From a virus (taxonomy: Duplodnaviria; Heunggongvirae; Uroviricota; Caudoviricetes), in IMG/VR virus record IMGVR_UViG_2541047698_000017, positions 1 to 21,355 of that record: a stretch of 21,355 nt of DNA, one strand, 5' to 3'. How positions within the stretch are numbered: the first letter of the stretch is position 1; each line of letters begins with the position of its first letter. Below are positions 1 through 21,355 of this stretch, piece by piece. The position numbers and the translations under genes are program-made. Under the pieces are notes generated by a model. That model was given only the letters and a program-made list of their open reading frames with translations, ran no database searches and had not been told where the DNA came from.

Positions 1-381
1 ATGCTGGGAGCGGTGGAACGCCGCTTCGGCAACGATCTTCCGTCGTCTCCAGTGGAGTGGCTGACGGATAATGGTTCATGCTACCGGGCTAATGAAACAC
101 GCCAGTTCGCCCGGATGTTGGGACTTGAACCGAAGAACACGGCGGTGCGGAGTCCGGAGAGTAACGGAATAGCAGAGAGCTTCGTGAAAACGATAAAGCG
201 TGACTACATCAGTATCATGCCCAAACCAGACGGGTTAACGGCAGCAAAGAACCTTGCAGAGGCGTTCGAGCATTATAACGAATGGCATCCGCATAGTGCG
301 CTGGGTTATCGCTCGCCACGGGAATATCTGCGGCAGCGGGCTTGTAATGGGTTAAGTGATAACAGATGTCTGGAAATATAG
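1..381 (+). CDS. insD: IS2-like transposase OrfB (InsD-type, DDE integrase domain), C-terminal fragment; 5' end lies outside the window
   Basis: The translation ...[34 protein letters not shown] is typical of the IS3-family OrfB C-terminus, with TAG stop at 379-381. Confidence 0.75.
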
Positions 382-3832: not shown

Positions 3833-4576
3833 TTAACTGGCTTTCTTTTTCGGGCGTCCACGTTTTGCCGGTGTCGCACTCCGGGTCTTACGCGGGGCGC
3901 GGGTGGCCGCTTTTGGCTGTGGCTCCGGCTTCGGTTTCAGTTCCCGCTCCAGTCGTTCAATCTCTTTTTTGACGCCTGCCTGACAGTCGAGCTGTGTCGC
4001 ACGTTGCAGGTGCGCCAGCGCCCCTGCGGCATCACCAGCGTCACGCAGAAACAGACCGGTGATTTTGTGCAGCTTTGCGCGCACTTCATCAGGCATGTCA
4101 GCCGTGGCGGTCAGTTCAAGGGTGTCCGTCAGCAGGCGGGTATCCACAGACTCACCGGCAGCGTGAGCGCGCATGGCCGCAAGCGCCACCTCCTCGGTGA
4201 ACATGTACGGCGGGGTGCGGCGGTGTTTACCCGGCATGGTCAGACCGTACTTCAGGGCATAACGGGCAATCTCCAGCGCACCGGCAATATCGCCGGTATC
4301 CAGACGCCACAGCATGACCGTCATCAGAATGTCATCCTGTGCACCTTTGCCCTGCTCCAGCACGCCGTTCACCCACGGCAACCAGAACGGCAGCAGTTCG
4401 CGTTTTTTCGCGGCCTTCAGCTCTTTTGAATAAATCGCTTTCAGTGTGCGCTGGTCTGCGGCCAGCTTGACCAGCATCTGCTCATAGACAGTTGCATGTC
4501 GCAGCGGGGCGGCTTCCCGCTGCGCGGTCATCGCTGCCGAGACCCGCATCATGTGGCGCTGTGCGGGACTCGTCAT
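3833..4576 (-). CDS. M: P2 gpM-like terminase small (endonuclease) subunit (247 aa)
   Basis: Size and position directly downstream of N; basic Lys/Arg-rich C-terminal tail; synteny with P2 M. Confidence 0.88.
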   Translation of the reverse strand: MTSPAQRHMMRVSAAMTAQREAAPLRHATVYEQMLVKLAADQRTLKAIYSKELKAAKKRELLPFWLPWVNGVLEQGKGAQDDILMTVMLWRLDTGDIAGALEIARYALKYGLTMPGKHRRTPPYMFTEEVALAAMRAHAAGESVDTRLLTDTLELTATADMPDEVRAKLHKITGLFLRDAGDAAGALAHLQRATQLDCQAGVKKEIERLERELKPKPEPQPKAATRAPRKTRSATPAKRGRPKKKAS

Positions 4577-4579
4577 CGG

Positions 4580-5653
4580 TTACGCTCCCGGCTCTGCGGT
4601 CGCTTTAGCCGGTGTGGAGAAATCACCGACCTTAATTTTTTCCACCAGACAACCGGCGGCGTAGTCCTCCACCACGTAATCAATGTTCATTGACTCGTAG
4701 TTCTCCACGCGGTCGAGTTTCGGGTTTTCCTCAATCACGCGGCGATGGCTGTCATCCATGTAGTAGATGGACAGGTTTTCCAGCTTCGTGATGAGCATCG
4801 CATCCGCCGGGAAGTACGGGACGCGTACCGCTGGCAGGTTGCCGATGCGTTTCTGGCTGATGATGACGTCAGCGGCCAGCATTTCGCTGTTGTCCTGCTC
4901 CTTGTTAACGATGGGGAAATACTTGTCCGCCAGTAACTGACGTCCCACTATCACCACAAGGTCAGGGTCTTCCTGATACCACGGTTCGATCAGGTTGTTG
5001 GTCGCATCCATCACCAGTGCATCAAGGCTGGCATAATCACCGCCCTTACCCACGCGGATGACCTCAGAGGTCGTGTGACCTTCCTCGTCAGTGACCTTGC
5101 TCATCACGCGCGCCGGTGCTTCATTGCGGTATTTCTGCAGCCAGCCGACCGCCACATCCTGCAACATCGGATTGCTGCTGCGGTCAGAGGTTTCGGCACG
5201 CTTCACGCCGTTAAAACCGGCCATGATGAAATCAAGGGACTGGCGTTTGATAATGGCGTTACGGACACGGAGCTGGAAATCCTGATAACGCGCCCACAGG
5301 TCAAGCGTTTTGTAGCGGATATAAAAATCGAAGTTAATCTGGTCGCATTCGTACTTGTTTGACGCCAGCTTCGAGAAGTCCTTCGGCTGACGCTCGGTGC
5401 CACCGGCGGTGTCGGTGGTGCTGGCGATGGAGCCGGTGACACCGATGCCAATTTTTTCCCCTTTCATTTCGCTGACCGGCACAATGTTGATGCGGGTCAG
5501 AAAGTCAGAGGACTCCTGCATGGTGTTCATCAGGGTCTGGGTGACCGACGGTTCAACGGTGAATTTTTTCGACACATCACCGGCGTCGATGCCGTTCAGT
5601 TCGGCAACACGGGACAGGTAGGCATTAAATTTAAAGCGGGTTTCCTGGCGCAT
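4580..5653 (-). CDS. N: P2 gpN-like major capsid protein (357 aa)
   Basis: 357 aa; MRQETRFKFNAYLSRVAELNGIDAGDVSKKFTVEPSV... recognised as P2-family major capsid protein; lies between O and M. Confidence 0.92.
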   Translation of the reverse strand: MRQETRFKFNAYLSRVAELNGIDAGDVSKKFTVEPSVTQTLMNTMQESSDFLTRINIVPVSEMKGEKIGIGVTGSIASTTDTAGGTERQPKDFSKLASNKYECDQINFDFYIRYKTLDLWARYQDFQLRVRNAIIKRQSLDFIMAGFNGVKRAETSDRSSNPMLQDVAVGWLQKYRNEAPARVMSKVTDEEGHTTSEVIRVGKGGDYASLDALVMDATNNLIEPWYQEDPDLVVIVGRQLLADKYFPIVNKEQDNSEMLAADVIISQKRIGNLPAVRVPYFPADAMLITKLENLSIYYMDDSHRRVIEENPKLDRVENYESMNIDYVVEDYAAGCLVEKIKVGDFSTPAKATAEPGA

Positions 5654-5710
5654 AGTTTTTCCTGAAATTAAGGGTTAATCGTGAAGGTTTTCCCGGATGA
5701 CTGATGCCGG

Positions 5711-6565
5711 TCAGCAGTTCGTCATCAGGGCGTCACCGCCACCGCCGGTGGCCTTGCTGCGGCGCTGCTGGGTCAGACTTTCGGTGTGGTCGAGACTGTT
5801 TTTCAGGCGGGTGAATGCCTGGCTGGTTTCATCCGCCCTGTCAGTCACCTCCTGCTTAAGTGCGGAAAAGGCGGTTTCCATCTCCGCGAGGCGCTGCTCA
5901 GTGGCGCTCAGTTTTTCCTGCACATGTTCAGCAACAGCGGTCACCGCTTCATGCACGTCATTCAGACGGGCATCATCGCTGGCCTGTTTGCGGCCAAAAA
6001 TGGACTTCACCTTTTCGGTCAGGGCGGTGAACACGGTTTCAGGCAGGTCTTCAAATTCCAGCTCAACAGGCGTTGCCACTGAAATCAGGTTTTCAGGGCT
6101 TAATTTGAAGCGGTTCAGAGGGTTGTGTTTTGCCGTGCGGCAGAATTCCAGGTATTCCGTGCCGAGGCTTGCCGGGTCATCGGTGACGGCCAGCCCCACC
6201 AGATAACATTTGCCGGTGTTGGCAAAGTTCGGCTGAATTTCCATTGAGGTGTAGACCTTCTGCGCGGCCTTGTTCATCGCGATAAGGTCATTGGTCGGGG
6301 TGATTTTCGCAAACAGCGCCCATTTGCCTTTCAGCGCCGAATCATCGTCAATCTTTTCGGCCTTCAGTTCGGCCACATCGCCATAACGTTTAAAAATGCC
6401 GTCAGGCAGGATGCCGCGCAGATGTTCCAGGTTAATGCGGCAACCATAGACACGCGGGTCAAAGGTTTCGGCCATTTCCTGAATATCCTGCGCACTGATG
6501 ACACGCCCGTCACAGGTGTCACCCTCAACGCCGATACGAAAGAATTTTGAGACTTTTTTTGCCAT
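5711..6565 (-). CDS. O: P2 gpO-like capsid scaffolding protein/protease (284 aa)
   Basis: Internal ATG at 6565 (MAKKVSKFFRIGVEGDTCDGR...) gives 284 aa as in P2 O; the track's 306-aa form is a 5' extension. Confidence 0.9.
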   Translation of the reverse strand: MAKKVSKFFRIGVEGDTCDGRVISAQDIQEMAETFDPRVYGCRINLEHLRGILPDGIFKRYGDVAELKAEKIDDDSALKGKWALFAKITPTNDLIAMNKAAQKVYTSMEIQPNFANTGKCYLVGLAVTDDPASLGTEYLEFCRTAKHNPLNRFKLSPENLISVATPVELEFEDLPETVFTALTEKVKSIFGRKQASDDARLNDVHEAVTAVAEHVQEKLSATEQRLAEMETAFSALKQEVTDRADETSQAFTRLKNSLDHTESLTQQRRSKATGGGGDALMTNC

Positions 6566-6738
6566 TGTCAGGAGTCCTGAATAGTGATTAGAGGAGTCAC
6601 ATGTCGGCATCAGTTTCCCGACGATGCGCATCCTCCGCCATCAGTCCCGGATGGCTTATCACTGACACAACAGCACCTTAGCGAATCGCAGGGCGCGACT
6701 CAGTAGCCTTGCCGTGTATTCATCACGGCGAGGTATTC
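6566..6738. promoter_or_regulatory. Divergent O/P intergenic region, expected site of P2-type late promoters
   Basis: By P2 synteny the divergent late promoters for O and P lie here. I did not find a canonical TGT-N12-ACA activator site by eye, so this is positional only. Confidence 0.35.
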
Positions 6739-8511
6739 ATGACCATCACCACAGACACCACTCTTTTACACGACCCGCGTCGTCAGGCGGCGCTGCTGTA
6801 CTGGCAGGGGTTTTCCGTGCCGCAGATTGCCGCCATGTTGCAGATGAAACGCCCGACGGTGCAGAGCTGGAAACAGCGCGACGGCTGGGACAGCGTTGCC
6901 CCCATCAGCCGTGTCGAAATGAGTCTGGAAGCGCGACTGACCCAGCTCATCATCAAACCGCAGAAAACCGGTGGTGACTTCAAGGAAATTGACCTGCTCG
7001 GACGCCAGATTGAACGACTGGCACGGATAAACCGCTACAGTCAGACCGGCAACGAGGCAGACCTTAATCCGAACGTCGCTAACCGCAACAAAGGCGGGCG
7101 TCGCAAACCGAAAAAGAATTTTTTCAGTGACGAGGCCATCGAAAAGCTGGAGCAGATTTTCTTTGAGCAGTCTTTCGACTATCAGTTGCACTGGTATCGC
7201 GCCGGGCTTGAGCACCGCATCCGCGATATCCTGAAATCCCGCCAGATTGGCGCAACGTTTTATTTTTCCCGCGAGGCGCTGCTGCGCGCCCTGAAAACCG
7301 GCCATAACCAGATTTTTCTGTCGGCCAGTAAAACGCAGGCGTATGTATTCCGTGAATACATCATCGCCTTTGCCCGTCTGGTTGACGTTGACCTGACCGG
7401 TGACCCGATTGTCCTGGGCAATAACGGCGCAAAACTGATTTTTCTCGGCACAAACTCCAACACCGCGCAGAGCCATAACGGCGACCTGTACGTCGATGAG
7501 ATTTTCTGGATCCCGAATTTTCAGGTACTGCGTAAGGTGGCATCAGGTATGGCCTCACAGAGTCACCTGCGCTCGACCTATTTCTCCACCCCGTCCACGC
7601 TGGCGCACGACGCCTACCCGTTCTGGTCAGGTGAACTGTTCAACCGGGGACGCGCCAGCGCCGCCGAACGTGTGGAAATCGACGTCAGTCATAACGCCCT
7701 TGCCGGTGGGCTTCTCTGTGCGGACGGCCAGTGGCGGCAGATTGTCACCATTGAGGATGCCCTGAAAGGCGGCTGCACGCTGTTCGACATTGAGCAGCTC
7801 AAACGCGAAAACAGCGCCGACGATTTTAAAAACCTGTTCATGTGTGAATTTGTTGACGACAAGGCATCGGTGTTCCCGTTCGAGGAGCTGCAACGCTGCA
7901 TGGTCGACACGCTGGAAGAATGGGAAGACTATGCGCCGTTTGCCGCCAATCCGTTCGGCTCCCGCCCGGTATGGATTGGTTACGACCCGTCACACCGTGG
8001 CGACAGCGCCGGATGCGTGGTACTGGCACCGCCGGTGGTGGCCGGTGGCAAATTCAGAATACTTGAGCGTCACCAGTGGAAAGGCATGGACTTTGCCACC
8101 CAAGCTGAATCCATCCGCAAACTCACCGAAAAATACAACGTCGAATACATCGGTATTGATGCCACCGGCCTCGGTGTCGGCGTGTTCCAGCTCGTGCGCT
8201 CGTTCTATCCCGCCGCGCGTGATATCCGCTACACGCCGGAAATGAAAACCGCAATGGTGCTCAAGGCAAAAGACGTTATCCGCCGTGGCTGTCTGGAATA
8301 TGACGTCAGCGCCACCGACATCACCAGCTCGTTTATGGCTATCCGCAAGACCATGACCAGCAGCGGACGCAGCGCCACCTATGAAGCCAGCCGCAGCGAG
8401 GAAGCCAGCCACGCCGACCTCGCCTGGGCGACCATGCACGCCCTGTTAAATGAGCCACTCACCGCCGGTATCAGCACCCCGCTGACATCCACCATTCTGG
8501 AGTTTTACTGA
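6739..8511 (+). CDS. P: P2 gpP-like terminase large (ATPase) subunit (590 aa)
   Basis: ATG at 6739 (MTITTDTTLLHDPRRQAALLYWQGFSVPQIAAM...) with GAGG about 6 nt upstream gives 590 aa; the track start at 6709 is a TTG extension. Its stop overlaps the Q start (TGATG). Confidence 0.92.
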   Translation: MTITTDTTLLHDPRRQAALLYWQGFSVPQIAAMLQMKRPTVQSWKQRDGWDSVAPISRVEMSLEARLTQLIIKPQKTGGDFKEIDLLGRQIERLARINRYSQTGNEADLNPNVANRNKGGRRKPKKNFFSDEAIEKLEQIFFEQSFDYQLHWYRAGLEHRIRDILKSRQIGATFYFSREALLRALKTGHNQIFLSASKTQAYVFREYIIAFARLVDVDLTGDPIVLGNNGAKLIFLGTNSNTAQSHNGDLYVDEIFWIPNFQVLRKVASGMASQSHLRSTYFSTPSTLAHDAYPFWSGELFNRGRASAAERVEIDVSHNALAGGLLCADGQWRQIVTIEDALKGGCTLFDIEQLKRENSADDFKNLFMCEFVDDKASVFPFEELQRCMVDTLEEWEDYAPFAANPFGSRPVWIGYDPSHRGDSAGCVVLAPPVVAGGKFRILERHQWKGMDFATQAESIRKLTEKYNVEYIGIDATGLGVGVFQLVRSFYPAARDIRYTPEMKTAMVLKAKDVIRRGCLEYDVSATDITSSFMAIRKTMTSSGRSATYEASRSEEASHADLAWATMHALLNEPLTAGISTPLTSTILEFY

Positions 8512-9545
8512 TGAGCAAGAAAAAAGGGAAAACACCGCAACCTGCGGCAAAAAAAATGACTGCCAGCGCCCCGAAAATGGAGGCATTCACCTTTGGCGAG
8601 CCGGTGCCGGTACTCGACCGCCGTGACATTCTGGATTACGTCGAATGCATCAGTAACGGCAGATGGTATGAGCCGCCGGTCAGCTTTACCGGGCTGGCAA
8701 AAAGTCTGCGTGCTGCCGTGCATCACAGCTCACCGATTTACGTCAAACGCAATATTCTGGCCTCGACATTTATCCCGCATCCGTGGCTTTCCCAGCAGGA
8801 TTTCAGCCGCTTTGTGCTGGATTTTCTGGTGTTCGGCAATGCGTTTCTGGAAAAGCGTTACAGCACCACCGGTAAGGTCATCAGACTGGAAACCTCACCG
8901 GCAAAATATACCCGCCGTGGGGTGGAAGAGGATGTTTACTGGTGGGTGCCGTCCTTCAACGAACCGACAGCCTTCGCGCCCGGCTCCGTATTTCACCTGC
9001 TGGAGCCGGATATCAATCAGGAGCTGTACGGCCTGCCGGAATATCTCAGCGCCCTTAACTCTGCCTGGCTGAATGAGTCGGCCACGCTGTTCCGCCGCAA
9101 GTATTACGAAAACGGCGCACATGCCGGATACATCATGTACGTCACCGACGCCGTGCAGGATCGCAACGATATCGAAATGCTCCGCGAAAACATGGTGAAG
9201 TCGAAAGGCCGCAACAACTTTAAAAATCTGTTTCTCTACGCCCCGCAGGGAAAAGCCGACGGCATTAAAATTATCCCGCTCAGTGAAGTGGCGACGAAAG
9301 ACGATTTTTTTAATATCAAAAAAGCCAGCGCCGCAGACCTGCTGGACGCGCACCGCATCCCCTTTCAGTTGATGGGCGGCAAGCCGGAGAACGTCGGGTC
9401 GCTGGGTGATATTGAGAAAGTGGCAAAGGTCTTTGTCCGCAATGAGCTTATCCCGTTACAGGACAGGATCCGCGAGATAAACGGCTGGCTCGGTCAGGAG
9501 GTCATCCGATTTAAAAACTACTCACTGGACACTGACAACGGCTGA
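8511..9545 (+). CDS. Q: P2 gpQ-like portal protein (344 aa)
   Basis: 344 aa (MSKKKGKTPQPAAKKMTASAPKMEAFTFGEPVPVLDRRD...); lies downstream of P and next to cos, as in P2. Confidence 0.92.
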   Translation: MSKKKGKTPQPAAKKMTASAPKMEAFTFGEPVPVLDRRDILDYVECISNGRWYEPPVSFTGLAKSLRAAVHHSSPIYVKRNILASTFIPHPWLSQQDFSRFVLDFLVFGNAFLEKRYSTTGKVIRLETSPAKYTRRGVEEDVYWWVPSFNEPTAFAPGSVFHLLEPDINQELYGLPEYLSALNSAWLNESATLFRRKYYENGAHAGYIMYVTDAVQDRNDIEMLRENMVKSKGRNNFKNLFLYAPQGKADGIKIIPLSEVATKDDFFNIKKASAADLLDAHRIPFQLMGGKPENVGSLGDIEKVAKVFVRNELIPLQDRIREINGWLGQEVIRFKNYSLDTDNG

Positions 9546-9550
9546 ACATC

Positions 9551-9572
9551 GCCGCCTGCGGGCGGCTTTTTT
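9551..9572 (+). terminator. Rho-independent terminator after Q
   Basis: GC hairpin gccgcc-tgcg-ggcggc followed directly by tttttt, 6 nt after the Q stop. Confidence 0.7.
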
Positions 9573-9714
9573 ACACCCCGTCATCACGCCCTCACACGCT
9601 CACCACCGCACAAAACACCCCGCAGACACACCAACGCCTCAACGGGCAGACTAAGCGCCGTCACGACGCGCTGAGACGCTGAAAAAATAAAATCAGCACC
9701 ACCGCCAGCGCGCA

Positions 9715-9733
9715 GTGCTTTCCCCGCCTCGCC
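9715..9733. other. cos site: 19-nt cohesive-end sequence of P2/P4/186-type phages
   Basis: gtgctttccccgcctcgcc is the exact reverse complement of the P2 cohesive end GGCGAGGCGGGGAAAGCAC as I recall it; it sits next to Q as on the P2 map. Confidence 0.7.
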
Positions 9734-9779
9734 CGCCCGCTTCATGGGGCGGTTTTAATGCAGTTGCATCAGGAAATCA

Positions 9780-9961
9780 GAGCTCTACCAACACTAGCAC
9801 GCCCCCACATGCTTTGAAATAAAAGCGAATGCAAACTCATGCACCAGTTAGATGCATTAGCACAAAGCTGAAAATCATAAAATAAGCGGCATAATCCCCC
9901 TCATGCTACCAAGAAACTCTCAAGATGTTGTGCTAAACATCGATGATCTGTACCTTGTTTT
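9780..9961 (+). promoter_or_regulatory. AT-rich upstream region of the accessory island; putative promoter
   Basis: Composition shifts abruptly to AT-rich after about 9780; weak -35/-10-like hexamers (ttgaaa at 9814, cataat at 9890) but no convincing sigma70 match. Confidence 0.3.
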
Positions 9962-11428
9962 ATGGTAAACATATCTATAAGTAATCACACAGATGGAACT
10001 AAAATAACTATGGCAAACGATATCATCGAAGCTTTTCCTGCAAAACGTTTCTTTGTAGAAATGTTAACCAGGGATATCGAACTCCAAGATGCTATTCTTG
10101 ACTTATTAGACAACTGTCTTGATGGCGCTCTTCGTTCCATTTCATCATCGAATGAAGAAATAAACGAAGAAAATAAATACCACGGTTTTTACTCAAAAAT
10201 AAATTTTAATGAAGATGGTTTTACAATTGAAGATAATTGTGGCGGAATTTCGGGAAGCTTAGCAACAAGCTATGCTTTCCGAATGGGAAGACCAAATGAA
10301 AGAGACATAGATAATATCCCAACCATTGGTGTTTATGGGATAGGTATGAAGCGAGCTATTTTTAAGTTGGGCACTTCATCGCAAGTATTAAGTAAAACAA
10401 AAGACGAGGAATTTAAAGTTACAATTTCTCCAGAATGGTTATCCAATGATAAAAACTGGAAACTAGATCTCGAACGTGGTAATGTCGATTTAAAAACAAC
10501 GGGCGTAAAAATTATAGTTAACGATCTCAGAGACGATGTAAAAAACCATTTCAAAGTTGATCGTGATTTTCAACAAAAATTAATCAATTCTGTTTCAAAC
10601 CATTATAGCCTAATTCTTAATAAAGGTTTCAAGGTCTATATTAATGATATAGAAGTCAAGCCAAATCTGACATCATTAATTATCGATACCGAAGCTCTTG
10701 TGTCAGCGAAAAAAGGTGGTATCACGCCTTATTTTTACAGAGGTGAAACTAATGGAGTTTCAATAAAGATCGCAGTTGGATTCTATAGAGATTTTGTGAC
10801 AGAAGATGAGGAAAATTCATTCCTTACTGGACGTAACACTTCCGAGAAAGCCGGATGGACTATTATCTGCAATGATCGTGTTGTTGTTCATGCGGACAAG
10901 ACACGTCTTACCGGATGGGGTGAAGCAGGAGTTCCACAATATCACACACAATTTGTTGGAATTGCAGGCGTAGCTATTTTTACATCTAATGAAGCTGAAA
11001 AATTACCTATTACTACTACCAAGAGAGGCATTGATGGTAATTCTGATATCTATTTGGCTACTAAAGATTTCATGCGTGAAGGCTTGAAAATATTTACAGA
11101 TTTTACTAACAGATGGAAAAGTAACTCTCCAGAACGCCAGCAAATGTTTAGTTCCACATCTAAAACAATTCCTCTTACAAACGACAAACTAGATAGCATA
11201 GTACCTGAAGATAAATGGTCTCGGGTGCATAGATCCATTGGTGGGAATAGTTTCAAACCAACATTGCCAATACCTAAAGAAACAGACCCTTTAAAGCAAA
11301 TAAAATTTAGTAGAAGATTGAGTGAGATAAAAACTGTTGCCACTTTCATTTTCGATGATGATTCTGTTCCTCCGACAGAAATTGGTAATTATTGCTTTGA
11401 AGATTTTTTAGAGAGGGCAAAAAAATGA
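9962..11428 (+). CDS. GHKL-superfamily (MORC/MutL-like, Bergerat-fold) ATPase, 488 aa; start uncertain (alternative ATG at 10010)
   Basis: Three GHKL motifs in order: motif I ELQDAILDLLDNCLDGAL (compare MutL ELVENSLDA), G1 box FTIEDNCGGIS (DxGxG), G2 box IGVYGIGMKRAIFKLG (closest to the MORC-type G2 box). About 350 C-terminal residues have no motif I can assign. Neither candidate start has a strong Shine-Dalgarno sequence. Confidence 0.75.
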   Translation: MVNISISNHTDGTKITMANDIIEAFPAKRFFVEMLTRDIELQDAILDLLDNCLDGALRSISSSNEEINEENKYHGFYSKINFNEDGFTIEDNCGGISGSLATSYAFRMGRPNERDIDNIPTIGVYGIGMKRAIFKLGTSSQVLSKTKDEEFKVTISPEWLSNDKNWKLDLERGNVDLKTTGVKIIVNDLRDDVKNHFKVDRDFQQKLINSVSNHYSLILNKGFKVYINDIEVKPNLTSLIIDTEALVSAKKGGITPYFYRGETNGVSIKIAVGFYRDFVTEDEENSFLTGRNTSEKAGWTIICNDRVVVHADKTRLTGWGEAGVPQYHTQFVGIAGVAIFTSNEAEKLPITTTKRGIDGNSDIYLATKDFMREGLKIFTDFTNRWKSNSPERQQMFSSTSKTIPLTNDKLDSIVPEDKWSRVHRSIGGNSFKPTLPIPKETDPLKQIKFSRRLSEIKTVATFIFDDDSVPPTEIGNYCFEDFLERAKK

Positions 11429-12417
11429 GTACTGGGGGAAGTATTCCTTATCATCTTCGACAACACAAAGCTGTCGAAAGAAATCTATTCATTGAGTTGC
11501 TCAGAAAACTCAACAACTATGTAAACATATCCGATTATGTTTATATCGGGTTTGGTGGCCCTTTTCTAGAAGACTTCAAACAACTGCATAATGCTTTAAA
11601 AATCAATAACATGATCTCTCTAGAGGTAGATGCTAACGTTCATAAACGACAAAAATTTAACAAACCTATATCATGTATTGATTTAGGAGAAGAACCTTTA
11701 AGTAGCAGTGAATTTATTACTCAAAGCGACTTCGCTGCACCTTCTCTAATTTGGCTTGACTATGCCATACCAAGCCAAATATATGAGCAAATGAATGACA
11801 TTGCTCAATTGGTAAGTAAGTTAAAGCCAAAAGATATATTTAAAATAACTTTAAATGCAACTCCTGAAACTTTAGGAAGAGATTTTCAAGAAAGAGACCC
11901 TAGGCGTTTTCGATTAAAAAAAATACAATCTTTACTTACTCAAGATTATTGCCCAGTGAATCTAACTGTTGATGATGTCACTTTTAAAAGGTACCCACAC
12001 CTTTTAATAAAAGCAGCTCAACGTGCCATAAGTATTGGATTAACAGGTAGACCAGATATAATGATCCATCCTTTATGTAATTTTATTTACAAAGATGGTC
12101 AGCAAATGCTTACCTTTACTGCCATTGTTCTCGAAAACAGTGATATGCAATTAGATAGCTTCCTTCAAAATTCTCGAATTAATTTTTGGCCCTTTTATTC
12201 TGGAGACTGGGGCACCGTCAAAAACATTAGTGTTCCCACGATGTCTTTACGTGAGAGAATCTTTATTGAGGAACGACTTCCTACAAAAGACCATGAAGAA
12301 ATTACCAACGACCTCGGCTTTTACATTGGAGATGATGAAGCCGAGGCTAATAGTAACCTTAAAAACTTTATTGAGTATTACAAAGTAATTCCGTGGTATT
12401 CGAAAGTTCTTCTTTAG
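11425..12417 (+). CDS. Protein of unknown function (330 aa), translationally coupled to the GHKL ATPase; candidate effector or specificity partner
   Basis: Its ATG overlaps the upstream stop (ATGA at 11425-11428), with GAGAGGG about 8 nt upstream. No motif recognised with confidence; only a weak Rossmann-like glycine-rich segment (YVYIGFGGPFLEDF ... ISLEVD). Confidence 0.7.
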   Translation: MSTGGSIPYHLRQHKAVERNLFIELLRKLNNYVNISDYVYIGFGGPFLEDFKQLHNALKINNMISLEVDANVHKRQKFNKPISCIDLGEEPLSSSEFITQSDFAAPSLIWLDYAIPSQIYEQMNDIAQLVSKLKPKDIFKITLNATPETLGRDFQERDPRRFRLKKIQSLLTQDYCPVNLTVDDVTFKRYPHLLIKAAQRAISIGLTGRPDIMIHPLCNFIYKDGQQMLTFTAIVLENSDMQLDSFLQNSRINFWPFYSGDWGTVKNISVPTMSLRERIFIEERLPTKDHEEITNDLGFYIGDDEAEANSNLKNFIEYYKVIPWYSKVLL

Positions 12418-13519
12418 AAAACTGACATAATTTATATAACGGTAATAGCATAGCTTCAGCTACTAATGGGCTAACGCTATTACCGATTTGCCTGAAACTA
12501 TGCCACTTAGTAGGGTGAAACCTAAACCAATCAGGAAAACCTTGTAATCGAGCAGCCTCACGTGGAGTAATAACTCTAGCCTGCGTTGGATGGATCGGCC
12601 TAACTGCTTGATAACTGCCCTTATCGCTGCCAGTTCCAGCCCTTAGCGTCGGACAGAAACCATTTGGATTTAACCTCTGAGATCGTGAAATTTTATCAGT
12701 TTCGCCAAAAGAGAGTTTTTTATATCTATTAATAACCTCATCTGTATGTATTGTTCCCAAGAAACCGGAGACCAACCCTTTTTTTAATTTTTCTAAAGAT
12801 TCCGGATCACCAACATTATTCGGAACATTACTCCAAAGTCTATCAAAAAAATATCCTTGCCTATCCATCTTAACTTCACGCCAGCCTTGTTCCTCTTGCT
12901 GCCATTCTTTTCTTATAACACGAGGAATACCGTATAAAGCATCTTTAACTAAGGTTTGCTCAATATCTTGCACAGGAAAGAAATCAGATTCTTTTAAACA
13001 ATTAGCTAATTCCTTTTTGAATCCGATAAAAAAAATCCTAGTTCTAGTTGTAGGAGCTCCATAATTAGACGCATTCACTTTTATTGGGCTCAATATTACA
13101 TATCGGTCTTTTACTAATGAGAATGCTTTTTCTCTAACTGCATCATATTTTTCATTCATTATCCCAGGAACATTCTCTGCCAAGAAACAAACAGGTGATA
13201 ACTCGCTCACCAACCTAAAAAAATGAATATACAATTCATTTCTGACGTCATTAGCCATCCCTTTACCAATTGTACTAAATCCCTGACAAGGTGGTCCACC
13301 GATGACACAATCAATATTACTAACATTACAAGCTGTTAGAATATCATGAGCAGAAAGTTTGCTAACATCTTTATGTAAATGTGTTGAATTTGGGAAATTA
13401 AGAGCATGGGAAAATATTGCATGCTTATCCAACTCAACGGCACCAACCAAGTTAAAGCCTGCCCGTGATGCTCCCAAGCTTAAACCACCTACCCCTGAGT
13501 ATAAATCAACCACATTCAT
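12368..13519 (-). CDS. DNA (cytosine-5)-methyltransferase, Dcm-like (383 aa)
   Basis: Canonical m5C-methyltransferase motifs: I DLYSGVGGLSLG, IV GGPPCQGFS (catalytic Cys), VI ENVPG, VIII TTRTRIF, X QIGNSVSP. Gene is AT-rich; its 3' end overlaps the convergent partner gene by 50 nt. Confidence 0.88.
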   Translation of the reverse strand: MNVVDLYSGVGGLSLGASRAGFNLVGAVELDKHAIFSHALNFPNSTHLHKDVSKLSAHDILTACNVSNIDCVIGGPPCQGFSTIGKGMANDVRNELYIHFFRLVSELSPVCFLAENVPGIMNEKYDAVREKAFSLVKDRYVILSPIKVNASNYGAPTTRTRIFFIGFKKELANCLKESDFFPVQDIEQTLVKDALYGIPRVIRKEWQQEEQGWREVKMDRQGYFFDRLWSNVPNNVGDPESLEKLKKGLVSGFLGTIHTDEVINRYKKLSFGETDKISRSQRLNPNGFCPTLRAGTGSDKGSYQAVRPIHPTQARVITPREAARLQGFPDWFRFHPTKWHSFRQIGNSVSPLVAEAMLLPLYKLCQFSKEELSNTTELLCNTQ

Positions 13520-13569
13520 GTTCAGTTAACCATATATGTATATTTAGACAACAATATTTAATTCTACCA

Positions 13570-15870
13570 TTACTTGAGCTCTTTGCTGAAGTACTCATTA
13601 CTAAAACCCTGCCACTCATCGACATTACTTGCCACATACTTATATTTTTTATCATCGAATATCACCATCGCACCACGCGCCAGCGCCTCAAGCTCCCATC
13701 GCTGTGGCCTGATACCGTTCTGAGCAAGGTCAACGCGGATACGGGTAATTTGCATTCGTTCCGACCGGGTCAGTCTGGCCGATGGCGCTATTTCATGCGG
13801 TTTTAACGGGCTTCCGTTTCTTTGCTGACGGTTTGGTCTTCTCAGGCCGTGTTTTAATGCGCCCCTGAGCGCCCTCACGACCTCCGGTTCATTCCATTCA
13901 ATAACACCGTCATCAACCAGATTAAGCACTGCTGCGGCGTGCTCAGAAGGTGTGGGAGCCGGTAACGAAGTATCACCACCGGTGAGCTTTCCACAGTTAT
14001 TGACAGGACTCCGAGGCGCGGCGATGCCGCTTTTTAAAGTCAAAGGCTCAACGACCGGCACTTTCGGAACAATGCGCCAGTCCGTCGTTCTGGTGATATG
14101 AATATGACGCGCGCCGAGATGCGGCGCGTAAATGCCGACCACTCTCTCGACTTCTTCCTCGTACTCGTTAACGTCATCCGACGGGCTACGGGCGACCCTG
14201 ACAGTCTGGCAATCGCGCGGGACATTTGCCCCGCCCTGCGCGCTGATATACAACGCAAAATCACCACTGTCTGCAGCGGCGCGTGCAGCCTCGACGCGCT
14301 CGTCAAACTCATCAGCAATGCTGACGCCGCGAGGCAATTTGCGTAGTTCACGGTAAGCCCCCATTGTCGGCAGACCAACCGTTTTAAATTGCGGAATGCG
14401 CCACGTTGACGCCCATGCGGTAACAGCCGCAGCTGTGTCTTTCAGCGGTCTACCGGTATCATTATCGAGCTGACCATCCAGTGCATAGCCGTCGATGTTT
14501 TTTGAGATGTATTTCGCGATATATCCCGCAGCACCGCCCCGGTTAAGGTGTTTTGCCTGAAAACGGTTTCGCGCAGCTCCTCTTTCGTCGCCATCCTCTT
14601 TGAGCGCGTAGCGACGCATGATTTCAATAATCTGGTTACGCTGGCGTGGATTACAAAAAAGCATCATATGCCAGTGCGGCGTTCCGTCGTGGTGTGGTTC
14701 AACAACACGCAAACCGTAGGCCTGTAAATCATTATCCTTGAATGCCGTGCGCATCAGGCTCCAGATACGGCAGAGATAACGCTGCGCATCCTTTGGATTA
14801 AATGCCTCATCGTTCCAGCCGTGATTTAGCTGGACGGTTTTACTTTCGCCTTTTCTGACCTGACGTGTCGGGTGATACTTTGACGGCGCGGTCAGCGTGA
14901 TAAACATCCCTACATCACCCTCTGCGGCGGCGTAACGCTCAATACCGGCGATGGTGTTCATCAGCTCCATCCGGCGAATTTCTGGATTAGAAATACTGCC
15001 CATCACCTTACTGATAAGGTCGATGCGCTCGCCGGTTTCCTTGTTTTCAAGGTCACACGATTTAAGAAATTCCAGATTTGCCTGGCGGCGCGCACGCACA
15101 TCACGAATGGCATGTTTACTGGCATAAGGAGAACGGTCTTTATTGACCTCCCCGACAGCAATCAGTAACGCCTCATGCCAGCGCATACGCTGGCCTTTAA
15201 GCTGATGAGTCCACCACTCATCGTTAAACAGGCGGGCAATGGCAGAATATGCCTGCCTCGTGGTCATCTGCCCTTTACGGTATTTTTTCCAGTAAAGCGG
15301 GGAAATATTGAAAGCACGTGCAGCGCCAGCAACATGACCATACAGATGTGCCTGCGCCTCATCCGTAAACAGCGATTCTTTTTCGCCATGCGCATCCACC
15401 CAGGCATCGCAGAGTTCCTCATACATCATGAAAAGCTGCGATGAGATACGGGCAGCAAACTTTTTCAGCTCCTTGTCATTCATTCCCGGCAGGCGCGCAT
15501 AGTGGTCACGCTCTGCCAGAAACAGCAACGACGCGTCGGTGTTCATTTCATGGCGCTGATTCACACGCTCAATGCGCGGCCATAAACGACGCTGAAAAGT
15601 GGATGTGAGGAAATAAAACCCGTGCACCGGGCTTTTATTGCGCCGGATGTAGTCATAGCGTGAAGTAAACAGCGAGCGCAAAAAGTAAGGCAGGCGGTTA
15701 ATCGTGGATAAAACACCTTGCACCTGACGCATCTCGTCACGTGTAAGGGGTCTTTCGCGCCCGACAGCCTCGCGTGGCGCGTTCCATGCATAAGCACCGG
15801 TAAACGCCTTACCGGTGCCTGCGGCAAATGCTGACGGAGGGACAAAACGCCCGGAGGCTTTAACGGCCAT
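13570..15870 (-). CDS. A: P2 gpA-like rolling-circle replication initiator (766 aa from ATG 15870)
   Basis: HUH motif (EPHHDGTPHWHMMLF) and active-site tyrosine region (GYIAKYISKNIDGY). ATG at 15870 (MAVKASGRFVPPSAF...) overlaps the orf83 stop; the track start at 15912 is TTG. Confidence 0.9.
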   Translation of the reverse strand: MAVKASGRFVPPSAFAAGTGKAFTGAYAWNAPREAVGRERPLTRDEMRQVQGVLSTINRLPYFLRSLFTSRYDYIRRNKSPVHGFYFLTSTFQRRLWPRIERVNQRHEMNTDASLLFLAERDHYARLPGMNDKELKKFAARISSQLFMMYEELCDAWVDAHGEKESLFTDEAQAHLYGHVAGAARAFNISPLYWKKYRKGQMTTRQAYSAIARLFNDEWWTHQLKGQRMRWHEALLIAVGEVNKDRSPYASKHAIRDVRARRQANLEFLKSCDLENKETGERIDLISKVMGSISNPEIRRMELMNTIAGIERYAAAEGDVGMFITLTAPSKYHPTRQVRKGESKTVQLNHGWNDEAFNPKDAQRYLCRIWSLMRTAFKDNDLQAYGLRVVEPHHDGTPHWHMMLFCNPRQRNQIIEIMRRYALKEDGDERGAARNRFQAKHLNRGGAAGYIAKYISKNIDGYALDGQLDNDTGRPLKDTAAAVTAWASTWRIPQFKTVGLPTMGAYRELRKLPRGVSIADEFDERVEAARAAADSGDFALYISAQGGANVPRDCQTVRVARSPSDDVNEYEEEVERVVGIYAPHLGARHIHITRTTDWRIVPKVPVVEPLTLKSGIAAPRSPVNNCGKLTGGDTSLPAPTPSEHAAAVLNLVDDGVIEWNEPEVVRALRGALKHGLRRPNRQQRNGSPLKPHEIAPSARLTRSERMQITRIRVDLAQNGIRPQRWELEALARGAMVIFDDKKYKYVASNVDEWQGFSNEYFSKELK

Positions 15871-16135
15871 GTGAGCCAAAAGCCTCTGAACAACGCTTGC
15901 TGAGTTGCTCAACCTGCGCGTTTAAATCAGCAAAAGATTTTGCGCTTCCGGTCAGAATATCGTGATGCATCATGCCGGAAACGAGCTGGCTTAATTTCGG
16001 GTAATAACCAACCACCGCCAGCCATTCCTGGCCGGCGTTTTTACCGCTTTCCGCTCTCTTTTTCTCGTGGAGAATAAACTGAAAGCTGTCACTGGTAACG
16101 ACATAACGTTCGCCAATTTCGATACGAATACTCAT
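15860..16135 (-). CDS. P2 orf83-like small early protein (91 aa)
   Basis: ORF directly upstream of A on the same strand; its ATG overlaps the orf82 stop (ATGA). Confidence 0.65.
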   Translation of the reverse strand: MSIRIEIGERYVVTSDSFQFILHEKKRAESGKNAGQEWLAVVGYYPKLSQLVSGMMHHDILTGSAKSFADLNAQVEQLSKRCSEAFGSHGR

Positions 16136-18434: not shown

Positions 18435-19448
18435 ATGGCAATCAAAAAACTCGATGATGGTCGATATGAAGTGGACATCCGCCCTACTGGACGTAACGGA
18501 AAACGCATCCGTAGGAAGTTTGATAAGAAAAGCGAAGCTGTCGCTTTCGAAAAATACACGTTGTACAACCACCACAATAAAGAATGGCTATCAAAACCAA
18601 CAGACAAACGACGTCTGTCGGAACTGACACAGATCTGGTGGGATTTAAAGGGTAAACACGAAGAGCATGGGAAATCTAATCTTGGAAAAATTGAAATCTT
18701 CACAAAAATAACGAATGACCCATGCGCATTTCAAATCACGAAATCCCTTATCAGCCAGTACTGCGCCACCCGAAGAAGTCAGGGTATTAAACCTTCGAGT
18801 ATCAATCGTGATTTAACATGTATTAGCGGCATGTTTACAGCCCTGATTGAAGCGGAGTTATTCTTTGGTGAGCACCCTATCAGAGGGACAAAGAGGCTTA
18901 AGGAGGAAAAACCAGAAACAGGCTATCTCACACAGGAAGAAATTGCCTTACTGCTTGCAGCACTTGACGGCGACAATAAAAAGATTGCGATTCTTTGCCT
19001 GAGTACAGGAGCACGTTGGGGAGAAGCAGCTCGTTTGAAAGCAGAAAATATCATCCATAACCGCGTCACGTTTGTTAAAACGAAAACAAACAAACCACGC
19101 ACCGTCCCGATCTCAGAGGCTGTTGCCAAAATGATCGCGGATAACAAACGAGGTTTTTTATTCCCTGATGCTGATTACCCTCGCTTCAGACGAACAATGA
19201 AAGCAATAAAACCGGATTTGCCAACGGGGCAAGCCACACATGCACTAAGGCACAGCTTTGCCACTCATTTCATGATTAATGGAGGAAGTATTATCACGCT
19301 ACAACGGATACTAGGTCACACGCGGATTGAGCAAACTATGGTTTACGCTCATTTTGCGCCAGAGTACCTTCAGGACGCCATTTCTCTTAATCCGCTAAGA
19401 GGTGGTACTGAAGCCGAGAGTGTCCACACAGTGTCCACAGTAGAGTAA
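18435..19448 (+). CDS. int: P2-type tyrosine integrase (337 aa)
   Basis: 337 aa; tyrosine-recombinase catalytic motifs (HALRHSFATH; LGHTRIEQTMVYAH); GGAGGG Shine-Dalgarno; 3' end next to the att core. Confidence 0.92.
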   Translation: MAIKKLDDGRYEVDIRPTGRNGKRIRRKFDKKSEAVAFEKYTLYNHHNKEWLSKPTDKRRLSELTQIWWDLKGKHEEHGKSNLGKIEIFTKITNDPCAFQITKSLISQYCATRRSQGIKPSSINRDLTCISGMFTALIEAELFFGEHPIRGTKRLKEEKPETGYLTQEEIALLLAALDGDNKKIAILCLSTGARWGEAARLKAENIIHNRVTFVKTKTNKPRTVPISEAVAKMIADNKRGFLFPDADYPRFRRTMKAIKPDLPTGQATHALRHSFATHFMINGGSIITLQRILGHTRIEQTMVYAHFAPEYLQDAISLNPLRGGTEAESVHTVSTVE

Positions 19449-19527
19449 CGTTTAAGGGCTTTCAGTGGTAATTTATGCCGCTCAAACCCGCATTGTACCG
19501 TTGAAAGCCCCTACTGGTGACACCCTA

Positions 19528-19554
19528 AATCTCCCTTACACGGGCTTATTTTTT
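19528..19554. other. 27-bp phage attachment core (P2 locI-type), int-proximal prophage/host junction
   Basis: aatctcccttacacgggcttatttttt is the reverse complement of the P2 att core AAAAAATAAGCCCGTGTAAGGGAGATT as I recall it, which coincides with the 3' terminator of the host sRNA gene cyaR. It lies 80 nt after the int stop. Confidence 0.6.
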
Positions 19555-19724
19555 GTGCATAAACCATAGAGACGGATTGATCCCAGGTGACCGTCTTCCA
19601 TTGACCACATCGATAGAATCTCCCTTCATAGCACGATGCCTTTCACGTAACGGCATCGTGCTCGCACAGGTTCCGGCTAAGCACAACCAGAACGCGCATG
19701 TTTGACGCTTACCAAAAAATATTC

Positions 19725-20042
19725 TCACTCTCCACATTTGAATGTCAGACGAGCGACGCCATGTAATCCTGCACCTTCTGTCTTCAGGTCAACTATCTGC
19801 ATTTTTTTGCCCTGAGTAACACAGAAATGAGCTGCATCATTTTTTACTATATTTTCTGCACCAGATATTCTGCCCCTGGCTAAAGAAGCTTCGGCTTCGG
19901 TGTAGTATTGGTTATCGAGTTTACGCTGAATATTACTTTTATATGCAAGACCAAATTTACCGATACTTGTCTCATCATTATGTACAGCACACCCAGACAT
20001 AAGAAAAACACTAATTAATGATATAGCAGCTATCTTTTTCAT
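19725..20042 (-). CDS. yegR: Host small exported, lipoprotein-like protein (YegR-like, 105 aa)
   Basis: ATG at 20042 gives MKKIAAISLISVFLMSGC..., a signal peptide with Cys; its position divergent from yegS matches the E. coli yegR-yegS neighbourhood as I recall it. Confidence 0.6.
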   Translation of the reverse strand: MKKIAAISLISVFLMSGCAVHNDETSIGKFGLAYKSNIQRKLDNQYYTEAEASLARGRISGAENIVKNDAAHFCVTQGKKMQIVDLKTEGAGLHGVARLTFKCGE

Positions 20043-20455
20043 CTTACCTTCCCCCATTAAATACCAACGACACGCTCTGGTGTTAAAATATAATAATGGC
20101 ATGATTATTATAATTGAATAGGATTATAATAAATGTTCTGTACAACATTTCCTACATAAGTAGGAATTACAAACATGAAGCCCTGCCCAGGTATCCCCAT
20201 GAGGGCTTTAATATATTTAGAATAAGATAGTGAAGATGCCACTGTTTAGTTGAATATTAGGTATATGCTCTTTTTTGAAATTTACCGGTGGCTACCGTTA
20301 ACATTCACTGTCCCCATTGCAAGCTCCTGGTGGTAACCACTGAATCCTCCATACTTGAACTGATTTTTATCCTCCGACTTTCATCCTGTTCTGACTCCAC
20401 CTTTTCTTTTCTGCTCTACACTATCTACAGACCAATCATAAAGGCACATACGATC

Positions 20456-21355
20456 ATGGCAGAATTTCCCGCCAGCTTACTGATTCTTAATGGCAAAAGT
20501 ACTGACAATTTACCATTGCGCGAAGCAATTATGCTGTTGCGTGAGGAAGGAATGACGATCCATGTGCGGGTCACCTGGGAGAAAGGCGATGCCGCACGAT
20601 ATGTAGAGGAGGCCCGGAAGTTGGGCGTCGCAACGGTGATTGCCGGTGGTGGCGATGGCACCATTAATGAAGTTTCTACGGCGTTGATTCAGTGTGAGGG
20701 GGATGACATACCCGCGCTAGGAATTTTGCCATTAGGAACCGCCAATGATTTTGCCACCAGTGTAAGGATTCCTGAGGCACTGGATAAGGCGCTGAAACTG
20801 GCAATTGCCGGTGACGCCATTGCGATAGATATGGCGCAGGTCAACAAACAAACCTGTTTTATTAATATGGCGACAGGCGGATTTGGGACGCGTATTACCA
20901 CAGAAACGCCGGAAAAATTAAAAGCCGCGCTGGGTGGCGTCTCTTACATCATTCATGGCTTAATGCGCATGGATACTCTGCAACCGGACCGTTGTGAGAT
21001 CCGCGGTGAAAACTTTCACTGGCAAGGTGACGCCCTGGTCATTGGTATTGGTAACGGGCGTCAGGCCGGTGGCGGTCAGCAATTGTGCCCGAACGCGTTA
21101 ATTAACGATGGCTTGCTGCAACTGCGCATTTTTACCGGCGATGAAATTCTTCCGGCTCTCGTATCAACATTAAAATCTGACGAAGATAACCCGAATATTA
21201 TCGAAGGCGCTTCGTCGTGGTTTGATATACAAGCCCCACACGAAATCACTTTTAATCTTGATGGCGAACCGTTGAGCGGACAAAACTTTCATATTGAAAT
21301 ACTTCCGGCGGCGTTGCGTTGTCGATTACCACCAGATTGCCCATTGTTGCGTTAA
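20456..21355 (+). CDS. yegS: Host lipid kinase YegS (299 aa), complete
   Basis: [28 protein letters not shown]... with the diacylglycerol-kinase-family GGDGT motif ([12 protein letters not shown]); 299 aa from ATG 20456; the track start at 20288 is an upstream extension. Confidence 0.85.

Follow-up and report, generated by a model that had tools for sequence, protein, structure and literature searches.

Passages of Iyer, Abhiman and Aravind (2008) predict that genes for MORC and paraMORC ATPases lie in restriction-modification (R-M) operons together with Dcm and Vsr genes, and they describe paraMORC proteins elsewhere that bear fused nuclease or TIR domains (PMC2292703). Bellieny-Rabelo et al. 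(2021) report a C5-methylase grouped with a HATPase_c_3/HEF_HK "kinase-like" protein and a Response_reg_2 protein, with Vsr and HNH_2 as additional members (PMC8011034). Anti-phage activity has been shown for VcSduA, the GHKL-Shedu (paraMORC3) protein of Vibrio cholerae, and the ATPase is required for it (PMC12137116). Here we analyze a 21,355-nucleotide stretch of DNA (the window; positions 1 to 21,355 of IMG/VR record IMGVR_UViG_2541047698_000017) that is a P2-like prophage of Escherichia coli. It carries an AT-rich island that encodes a MORC-family ATPase, a partner protein of family PF20553 and a C5-cytosine DNA methyltransferase (Dcm). The three genes of the island make up a self-contained module that moves horizontally and is carried as cargo by temperate phages. 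We read the trio as a variant of the MORC/paraMORC R-M-like systems, one for which classical restriction is unsupported. The island and its genes are as follows.

9780-13560, no strand: AT-rich cargo island, GC 0.33-0.40 in 500-nt segments against 0.5-0.6 in the flanks, between cos/portal gene Q and gene A
10010-11428, plus strand: MORC-family GHKL+S5 ATPase, 472 aa (longest open reading frame 9962-11428, 488 aa)
11425-12417, plus strand: PF20553 (Methyltransf_35) protein, 330 aa, coupled to the ATPase gene by an ATGA overlap
12368-13519, minus strand: C5-cytosine DNA methyltransferase (Dcm), 383 aa, convergent with the partner gene

The first-pass annotation of this DNA had described three genes with these overlaps, and the reading frame list and a direct reading of the sequence agree with it; all three open reading frames are intact. 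The ATGA stop/start overlap that couples the partner gene to the ATPase gene was read at 11425-11428, as that annotation had it, and the convergent 3' overlap of the partner and Dcm genes occupies 12368-12417 (50 nt). The most likely start of the ATPase is the ATG at 10010 rather than 9962, because homologues of 460-475 aa begin there and PGAP uses the same start.

The operons described in the passages of PMC2292703 share with the trio a GHKL+S5 ATPase with the MORC motif, linkage to cytosine methylases and Vsr, and a patchy, laterally mobile distribution. The same passages include a minority class without helicases, and the trio also lacks a helicase; some of their loci have two different GHKL proteins, as do eight loci found here. 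The difference lies in the company of the ATPase. These passages stress helicase and nuclease partners, whereas the trio has neither and its invariant partner is the PF20553 gene; term searches of the PMC2292703 text did not turn up a PF20553 methyltransferase-fold partner. The arrangement of Bellieny-Rabelo et al. (PMC8011034) resembles the trio in its Dcm-linked paraMORC-type GHKL protein with a small dedicated partner and in its Vsr/HNH accessories. It differs in its receiver-like partner and in the extra HEF_HK and HATPase_c domains on its GHKL protein; Pfam detected neither of these two extra domains in the island proteins. VcSduA likewise has a GHKL ATPase, whose activity is required for the attached effector, but it is a single gene with a fused PD-(D/E)xK nuclease (DUF4263) and no methylase (PMC12137116).

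More distant systems share parts of this design. Mza (Gao et al. 2020) is an anti-phage, multi-gene system with a MutL-like GHKL ATPase. The ATPase and partner drew a single NCBIfam signal, a faint one from the MzaB model (14.5 bits; cut-off 850), PADLOC found no other Mza component, and no further gene is conserved beside the trio. BREX and DISARM combine a self-marking DNA methylase with ATPases, like the scheme proposed below for the trio, and BREX blocks phage without a known nuclease. However, PglZ, BrxC, DrmA, DrmB and DrmC are absent from the window, and the ATPase and partner match no BREX or DISARM model. Type II R-M systems with a C5 methylase and Vsr are like the trio in that the methylase is modular and swappable and the non-methylase genes decay first. 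They differ in that the trio has no cognate restriction endonuclease, and its non-methylase part consists of an ATPase and a second methyltransferase-fold protein. PADLOC 2.0 (2023; 5,027 models) gave no match for the ATPase or the partner, and its only matches in the island were methylase models on Dcm. The searched literature held no description of the trio (PF20553, or GHKL/MORC/paraMORC with a methyltransferase, or CP-933R), and two papers on the P2 hotspot make no mention of methyltransferases or GHKL in their main text. The first-pass annotation could not match the trio to a named system, and the PADLOC results for the ATPase and partner and the literature searched agree with this.

An alignment of partner homologues yielded 80 loci from GTDB species-representative genomes of many phyla, including Proteobacteria, Cyanobacteria, Bacteroidota, Bacillota, Chloroflexota, Acidobacteriota, Verrucomicrobiota and Latescibacterota. 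In every one of the 80 loci the ATPase and partner genes are immediate neighbours, and in 79 the ATPase gene is upstream of the partner gene and co-directional with it. The 4-nt overlap is kept in about 48 of the 73 measurable loci, and the pairwise distances of the two proteins correlate with a Mantel r of 0.78. A Dcm homologue was found by tblastn within a few kb of the pair in 68 of the 80 loci. Both flanks are visible in 76 loci, which puts the informative frequency at 68 of 76 (89%); four of the 12 Dcm-less loci end within ~0.5 kb of the pair on one side. Among the viral contigs of IMG/VR, 38 encode the partner and 37 of these also encode Dcm. These data show that the ATPase and its partner are an obligate, translationally coupled and co-evolving pair, and that selection has kept this pair beside a C5 DNA methylase in bacteria and phages alike. 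The claim that the three genes form one module, made from the window alone, is borne out by these counts. The Dcm gene stands on the opposite strand in the window and could by itself be an orphan phage methylase, which would fit a chance juxtaposition of unrelated cargo genes in one prophage. Recurrence of the same three families in 68 genome loci and 37 viral contigs with unrelated flanks refutes that idea, and we give it next to no weight.

Dcm is tied to the pair more loosely than the pair is to itself. Its distances correlate weakly with those of the pair (r 0.26-0.36), and several Dcm subfamilies with 24-57% identity to the window Dcm are in use. Dcm is an exchangeable component of the module. 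Gene order varies. Dcm, ATPase and partner follow one another on one strand as the dominant order in Chloroflexota, Latescibacterota and delta-proteobacteria, and Enterobacteria have the ATPase gene, then the partner gene, with Dcm convergent to them. Beyond the module, the neighbouring genes are unrelated between loci. Accessory genes among the 80 loci encode the Vsr endonuclease (28 loci), HNH proteins (6) and a NERD-UvrD helicase (3). Clustering of open reading frames from the 80 loci and a scan of 101 flanking proteins did not detect a conserved hidden fourth gene, in particular a nuclease; only Vsr, HNH and NERD-UvrD recur. No nuclease domain was found in the three module proteins. A Rhodoferax metagenome-assembled genome (L020:6613-13706) has one Dcm and an HNH-like gene with a divergent ATPase-partner pair on either side, and the second pair is 30% and 25% identical to the query. 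In a cyanobacterial locus (L022:4129-9020), the MORC-like ATPase gene is a tandem duplicate (537 and 498 aa) followed by one partner gene and Dcm.

The ATPase matches HATPase_c_3 in Pfam (E 1e-9), the HATPase_c-type hit that the first-pass annotation expected of a profile search. Its GHKL motifs are E24/N35/D38-G39, D75-x-G-G79 and G107-x-x-G-I-G112 in the 472-aa numbering, and the four motifs of the GHKL (Bergerat) fold show no variation among 21 sequences and conservation of at least 95% among 60. The C-terminal S5-fold domain has the conserved basic residue of MORC proteins, the invariant lysine of TTTKRG. According to passages of Iyer et al., the MORC family was defined by the motif GhXhhpXXRhl (PMC2292703). 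This S5-domain motif reads GWTIICNDRVV at residues 282-292 of the ATPase, with conservation of 95% or more at its G, C, N, D and R. The best structural match is MORC3, which scores better than MutL; searches of PDB sequences with single sequences and profiles gave a marginal MORC3 match only. The ATPase is a true prokaryotic MORC-family protein, because the GHKL motifs, the S5 lysine and the family-defining motif are invariant, and its earlier description as a GHKL ATPase with MORC-like motifs was correct. Pfam gave no match for the C-terminal 127 residues, and the last ~125 residues belong to no recognisable family and lack a nuclease signature.

The kinship of the ATPase bears on a role in the maintenance or repair of C5 methylation, in which a MutL-like ATPase and its partner would aid Vsr-type very-short-patch repair of T:G mismatches or deal with other by-products of Dcm, and would not attack foreign DNA. 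Vsr is present in 28 of the 80 loci, and E. coli MutL binds Vsr in a nucleotide-dependent manner according to passages of PMC2715241. However, most loci lack Vsr, the ATPase has the MORC signature and matches MORC3 better than MutL, and a methyltransferase-fold partner is left without a role. The prophage cargo hotspots and the DISARM operon described below also point to functions in conflict. We regard a repair helper as very unlikely.

Eight loci encode a second GHKL+S5 protein beside the same Dcm. These proteins have 546-610 aa, are 23-27% identical to the window ATPase and carry a C-terminal fusion to a HEPN domain (Hypoth_Ymh/Aga_HEPN) or to a PD-Lambda-5_A-like domain. They look like a separate Dcm-paraMORC-HEPN system that shares the methylase. 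Their positions are as follows.

L008:10243-11961, second GHKL+S5 protein
L009:4846-6486, second GHKL+S5 protein
L013:1021-2853, second GHKL+S5 protein
L031:10382-12073, second GHKL+S5 protein
L010:9067-10830, minus strand, second GHKL+S5 protein
L015:9611-11356, minus strand, second GHKL+S5 protein
L018:5640-7397, minus strand, second GHKL+S5 protein
L030:195-1892, minus strand, second GHKL+S5 protein

The partner had been described as a protein of unknown function, but it does belong to a recognisable family. It matches Pfam PF20553 (Methyltransf_35) over residues 3-328 of 330 with an E value of 1.5e-84 (284.5 bits against a gathering cut-off of 27), the PGAP name agrees with the PF20553 "putative O-methyltransferase", and the structure model has a class-I S-adenosylmethionine (SAM) methyltransferase fold. 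The top structural matches of the model are N- and C-methylating RNA and nucleic-acid base methyltransferases with generic scores; PDB sequence searches with single sequences and profiles gave no match. We did not find evidence that supports the "O-" of the family name, and the nearest structures are N- and C-methylating. Across 60 divergent sequences, conservation is at least 95% at G44 in the motif I glycine loop, at W110 and D112 where strand 4 ends, and in the N-terminal segment Y9 H10 L11 R12 K15 A16 R19. The pattern of conserved residues predicts that the partner is probably an active methyltransferase. It has no variable region of the size of a target-recognition domain, and its isoelectric point (pI) is not basic. 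Protein pI was considered as a guide to the substrate and set aside when the values did not discriminate. The family comprises ~1,970 clusters at 50% identity across many bacterial phyla, and among the 150 best-scoring representatives almost every one is a stand-alone protein of ~300-380 aa, a few shorter fragments apart. In PHROGs, the ATPase and the partner each belong to a phage family labelled "unknown function".

Dcm matches Pfam PF00145 (E 8.6e-58, 196.7 bits against 22), TIGR00675 dcm and PADLOC MTase_II (E 8e-95), and it also scores on the PADLOC DrmMII and DruM models. The convergent Dcm-like methylase with a 50-nt overlap was therefore called correctly from the sequence, in both its family and its coordinates. 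The closest solved structure is PDB 3g7u (E 1e-156). P77-C78-Q79, E115-N116-V117, R159/R161 and G346/V349 are conserved in 60 sequences, so that the protein has the catalytic PC, the ENV motif, the QxRxR-type arginines and the C-terminal GN(S)V motif of a C5 methylase. All three proteins of the trio look active, because the GHKL motifs and S5 lysine, the motif I and motif IV-like residues of the partner, and PC and ENV of Dcm are conserved.

The island is 100% identical to a stretch of E. coli strain EC77. In EC77 it is surrounded in the RefSeq annotation by P2 structural genes, terminase, portal, replication endonuclease, cox, repressor and integrase, next to yegR/yegS. Its GC content is 0.359, compared to 0.565 in the left flank and 0.481 in the right flank, as befits the compositionally foreign AT-rich block noticed at the outset. 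The following features mark its place.

9715-9733, minus strand: P2 cos cohesive-end sequence, exact 19-nt match to GGCGAGGCGGGGAAAGCAC with 0 chance matches expected, left border of the hotspot
end at 9545: portal gene (Q), assignment confirmed by the EC77 RefSeq annotation
13570-15912: replication endonuclease gene (A), assignment confirmed by the EC77 RefSeq annotation
9868-9895, plus strand: possible sigma-70 promoter, a weak candidate with a 9/12 consensus match, upstream of the ATPase gene

The 19-nt query is what we take to be the P2 cos sequence. The positions of cos, the portal gene end and gene A place the island between cos and gene A, and its three genes take up the whole interval. 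The P2 cos-proximal hotspot is marked by variable genes of foreign composition that lie between cos/portal gene Q and replication gene A, and the cos match and the EC77 gene assignments agree with the cargo site that had been proposed. We take this interval to be the site where P2 itself carries tin and old. Promoter-like matches in the region do not exceed the number expected from shuffled sequence.

Other parts of the prophage also stand out. Window positions 1-381 (plus strand) hold the 3' part of a hypothetical gene that is 786 nt long in EC77. It is another small insertion of a non-structural kind in the late region, with the minus-strand baseplate V gene on one side and the tail-completion genes on the other. 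The right prophage boundary lies at 19450-20500, past the integrase gene (18435-19448) and beside yegR/yegS, and GC falls to 0.37 at 20001-20500.

The identical island is present in 3 of 5,426 complete E. coli genomes, and full-length variants at 67-75% nucleotide identity occur in ~49 genomes. One of these is strain 1579, which carries its variant at the same P2 site in a prophage at the same chromosomal integration site as that of the window. Twenty P2-like IMG/VR contigs hold the trio between portal and repA, with portal sequences 68-100% identical and trio sequences 62-100% identical. Versions of the trio also lie at the P2 cos-to-A site in other E. coli, Enterobacter and Kluyvera prophages. 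A divergent trio occupies L083:4566-8065 (NZ_CP120944.1 2586216-2589715) in the lambdoid prophage CP-933R of E. coli O157:H7 EDL933, between replication/nin-like genes and the DUF1133/tRNA region, and it is common to ~200 related genomes (O157:H7, O111). Its proteins are 41% (ATPase), 34% (partner) and 64% (Dcm) identical to those of the window. PDB 3g7u is presumably the CP-933R methylase, in line with this 64% identity and with the strong match of the window Dcm to 3g7u. A distant trio lies at one end of the record of the Pseudomonas Pf inovirus PfAC20 (PP058144.1; L082:280-3711) as an ATP-binding protein, a hypothetical protein 28% identical to the partner, and a cytosine methyltransferase. 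The published PfAC20 analysis scored only the methylase, as an "incomplete" R-M system, and places the defence systems of Pf phages in the accessory genome. A further DNA cytosine methyltransferase gene of PfAC20, a short one, lies at 5438-6082.

Carriage by phages also invites the idea that the trio is a DNA hypermodification or anti-restriction cassette that serves the phage, with both methyltransferases modifying DNA. The MORC-like clamp would make the compact PF20553 enzyme processive or sequence-independent, or steer it to 5-methylcytosine (m5C) sites (giving, for example, N4,5-dimethylcytosine), and the phage or host genome would be shielded from restriction, including by type IV enzymes that attack m5C. 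Consistent with this, the module has two methyltransferase-fold proteins and no nuclease, and three kinds of temperate phage that are not related to one another carry it. The partner lacks a variable region large enough for target recognition, its top structural matches are nucleic-acid base methyltransferases, and its invariant D112 with the following aromatic residue at the end of strand 4 may be read as resembling amino-methyltransferase motif IV. Yet independent protective methylases would need neither near-obligate linkage nor an ATPase, and the partner is not basic. Most copies are chromosomal, in many phyla and with Vsr, the phage locations are known hotspots for defence cargo, and the related second GHKL proteins bear HEPN-type toxic effectors. 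On balance we consider such a cassette unlikely.

The pair also occurs inside a known defence operon. In a Myxococcota metagenome-assembled genome (L059:239-12323), it is nested on the same strand in a class-1 DISARM operon without a C5 methylase, in the order DrmMI fragment, DrmD, pair, DrmA, DrmB, DrmC and then a NERD-UvrD helicase. The thought that the pair replaces the DISARM methylase was rejected because DrmMI is still present. This operon, together with eight loci that have the pair and no adjacent Dcm, can be read in favor of abortive infection, in which the MORC-like ATPase would sense a cue, the PF20553 enzyme would methylate host rRNA or tRNA, and translation would stop, with Dcm as a separable neighbour. 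The HEPN RNase-type domains of the sister GHKL proteins and the weak co-evolution of Dcm with the pair point the same way. However, 89% of the informative loci, from several phyla and with rearranged gene order, have a linked Dcm, which is hard to explain without functional dependence, and the structural matches of the partner are generic and identify no RNA substrate. Abortive infection by RNA methylation is in our judgment quite unlikely.

Damaged copies of the module were also found. The pair is hit four times and Dcm never, with Dcm intact in each copy. In E. coli GF43 (NZ_CP172127.1 2311-6090) the match to the island is shorter by one base and the annotation breaks the partner gene into two pieces, the ATPase gene is split in two loci (L024 and L051), and the partner gene is truncated in a P2-like viral contig (L115).

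Among these readings we favor methylation-based immunity that follows R-M or BREX logic without a recognisable nuclease, and we put the probability of this scheme as a whole at roughly 0.5; any specific chemistry within it is far less certain. The context for defence is the position of the trio at the P2 hotspot, in CP-933R and in PfAC20, and of the pair inside a DISARM operon. From this context we infer a defence role and self-protection by Dcm. In the proposed scheme, the Dcm-type enzyme would mark resident DNA with m5C. The MORC-like ATPase would dimerise on ATP and clamp or scan DNA, like eukaryotic MORCs and MutL. The ATPase and the methyltransferase-fold partner would then act on DNA that lacks the m5C mark, modifying or blocking it. 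Sequence specificity would probably be borrowed from Dcm or its mark, because the pair has no target-recognition-sized variable domain and Dcm is swapped freely; weak co-evolution of Dcm with the pair is as expected for a modular specificity component. The partner would be the output subunit, in place of the fused nuclease, HEPN or TIR effectors of paraMORC proteins. This placement is suggested by analogy with the HEPN and PD-Lambda-5_A fusions on the second GHKL proteins of eight loci, with the paraMORC fusions to nuclease and TIR domains, and with the ATPase requirement of VcSduA. The partner may methylate invader nucleic acid or host RNA so that replication or translation stalls, or it may be a base-probing subunit of a blocking complex. 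A more pointed version makes the methyltransferase itself the effector: a MORC-type clamp would deliver a SAM-dependent enzyme whose methylation disables m5C-lacking DNA or host RNA. This version is tentative, and we hold it doubtful. Of the original interpretation, the single module, the MORC-like ATPase and the hotspot site are retained; the partner proves to belong to a recognisable family, and classical restriction is unsupported.

Several observations weigh against an immune function of this kind. The module has no nuclease or other recognised effector, and we know of no precedent for a methyltransferase as a defence effector. The searched literature contains no phage-protection experiment on any member of the trio, and the scope of PADLOC 2.0 ends in 2023, so that systems named later fall outside it. 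The immediate neighbours of the module are mostly ordinary genes rather than defence genes. Eight loci with intact flanks, six of them cyanobacterial, hold the pair without a neighbouring Dcm, which argues that the pair is not strictly dependent on a linked Dcm or is not toxic without one. The six cyanobacterial pairs sit among housekeeping genes. In three Nostocales loci (L026, L028 and L029, ~4100-12200), the Dcm-less pair lies between two NADH-dehydrogenase/antiporter-type genes in conserved synteny, and this Nostoc/Scytonema context is chromosomal and outside any island, a misfit with a simple R-M reading. The methylase linked to the DISARM-embedded pair is an N6-adenine enzyme. Finally, the asymmetry of decay (four hits to the pair and none to Dcm) is not statistically significant.

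The module is widespread, being found in many bacterial phyla, in at least three kinds of temperate phage and in the reference pathogen E. coli O157:H7 EDL933. The EDL933 methylase appears to have been crystallised already, presumably as PDB 3g7u, yet two of the proteins of the trio are absent from the defence catalogue searched. Prophage Dcm genes that are scored as "incomplete R-M" may belong to a complete three-gene module, which matters for annotation. If the trio is an immunity system, it adds an architecture without a recognisable nuclease and with a methyltransferase-fold protein in the effector position. If the methyltransferase is indeed the effector, this would be nuclease-free restriction by chemical marking. 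For the question in eukaryotic gene silencing of how MORC-family ATPases read DNA methylation or act on it, the trio offers a bacterial model that is tractable. With a methyltransferase effector, it would also be a forerunner, in prokaryotes, of the way in which eukaryotic MORC ATPases and DNA methylation work together to silence invading elements.

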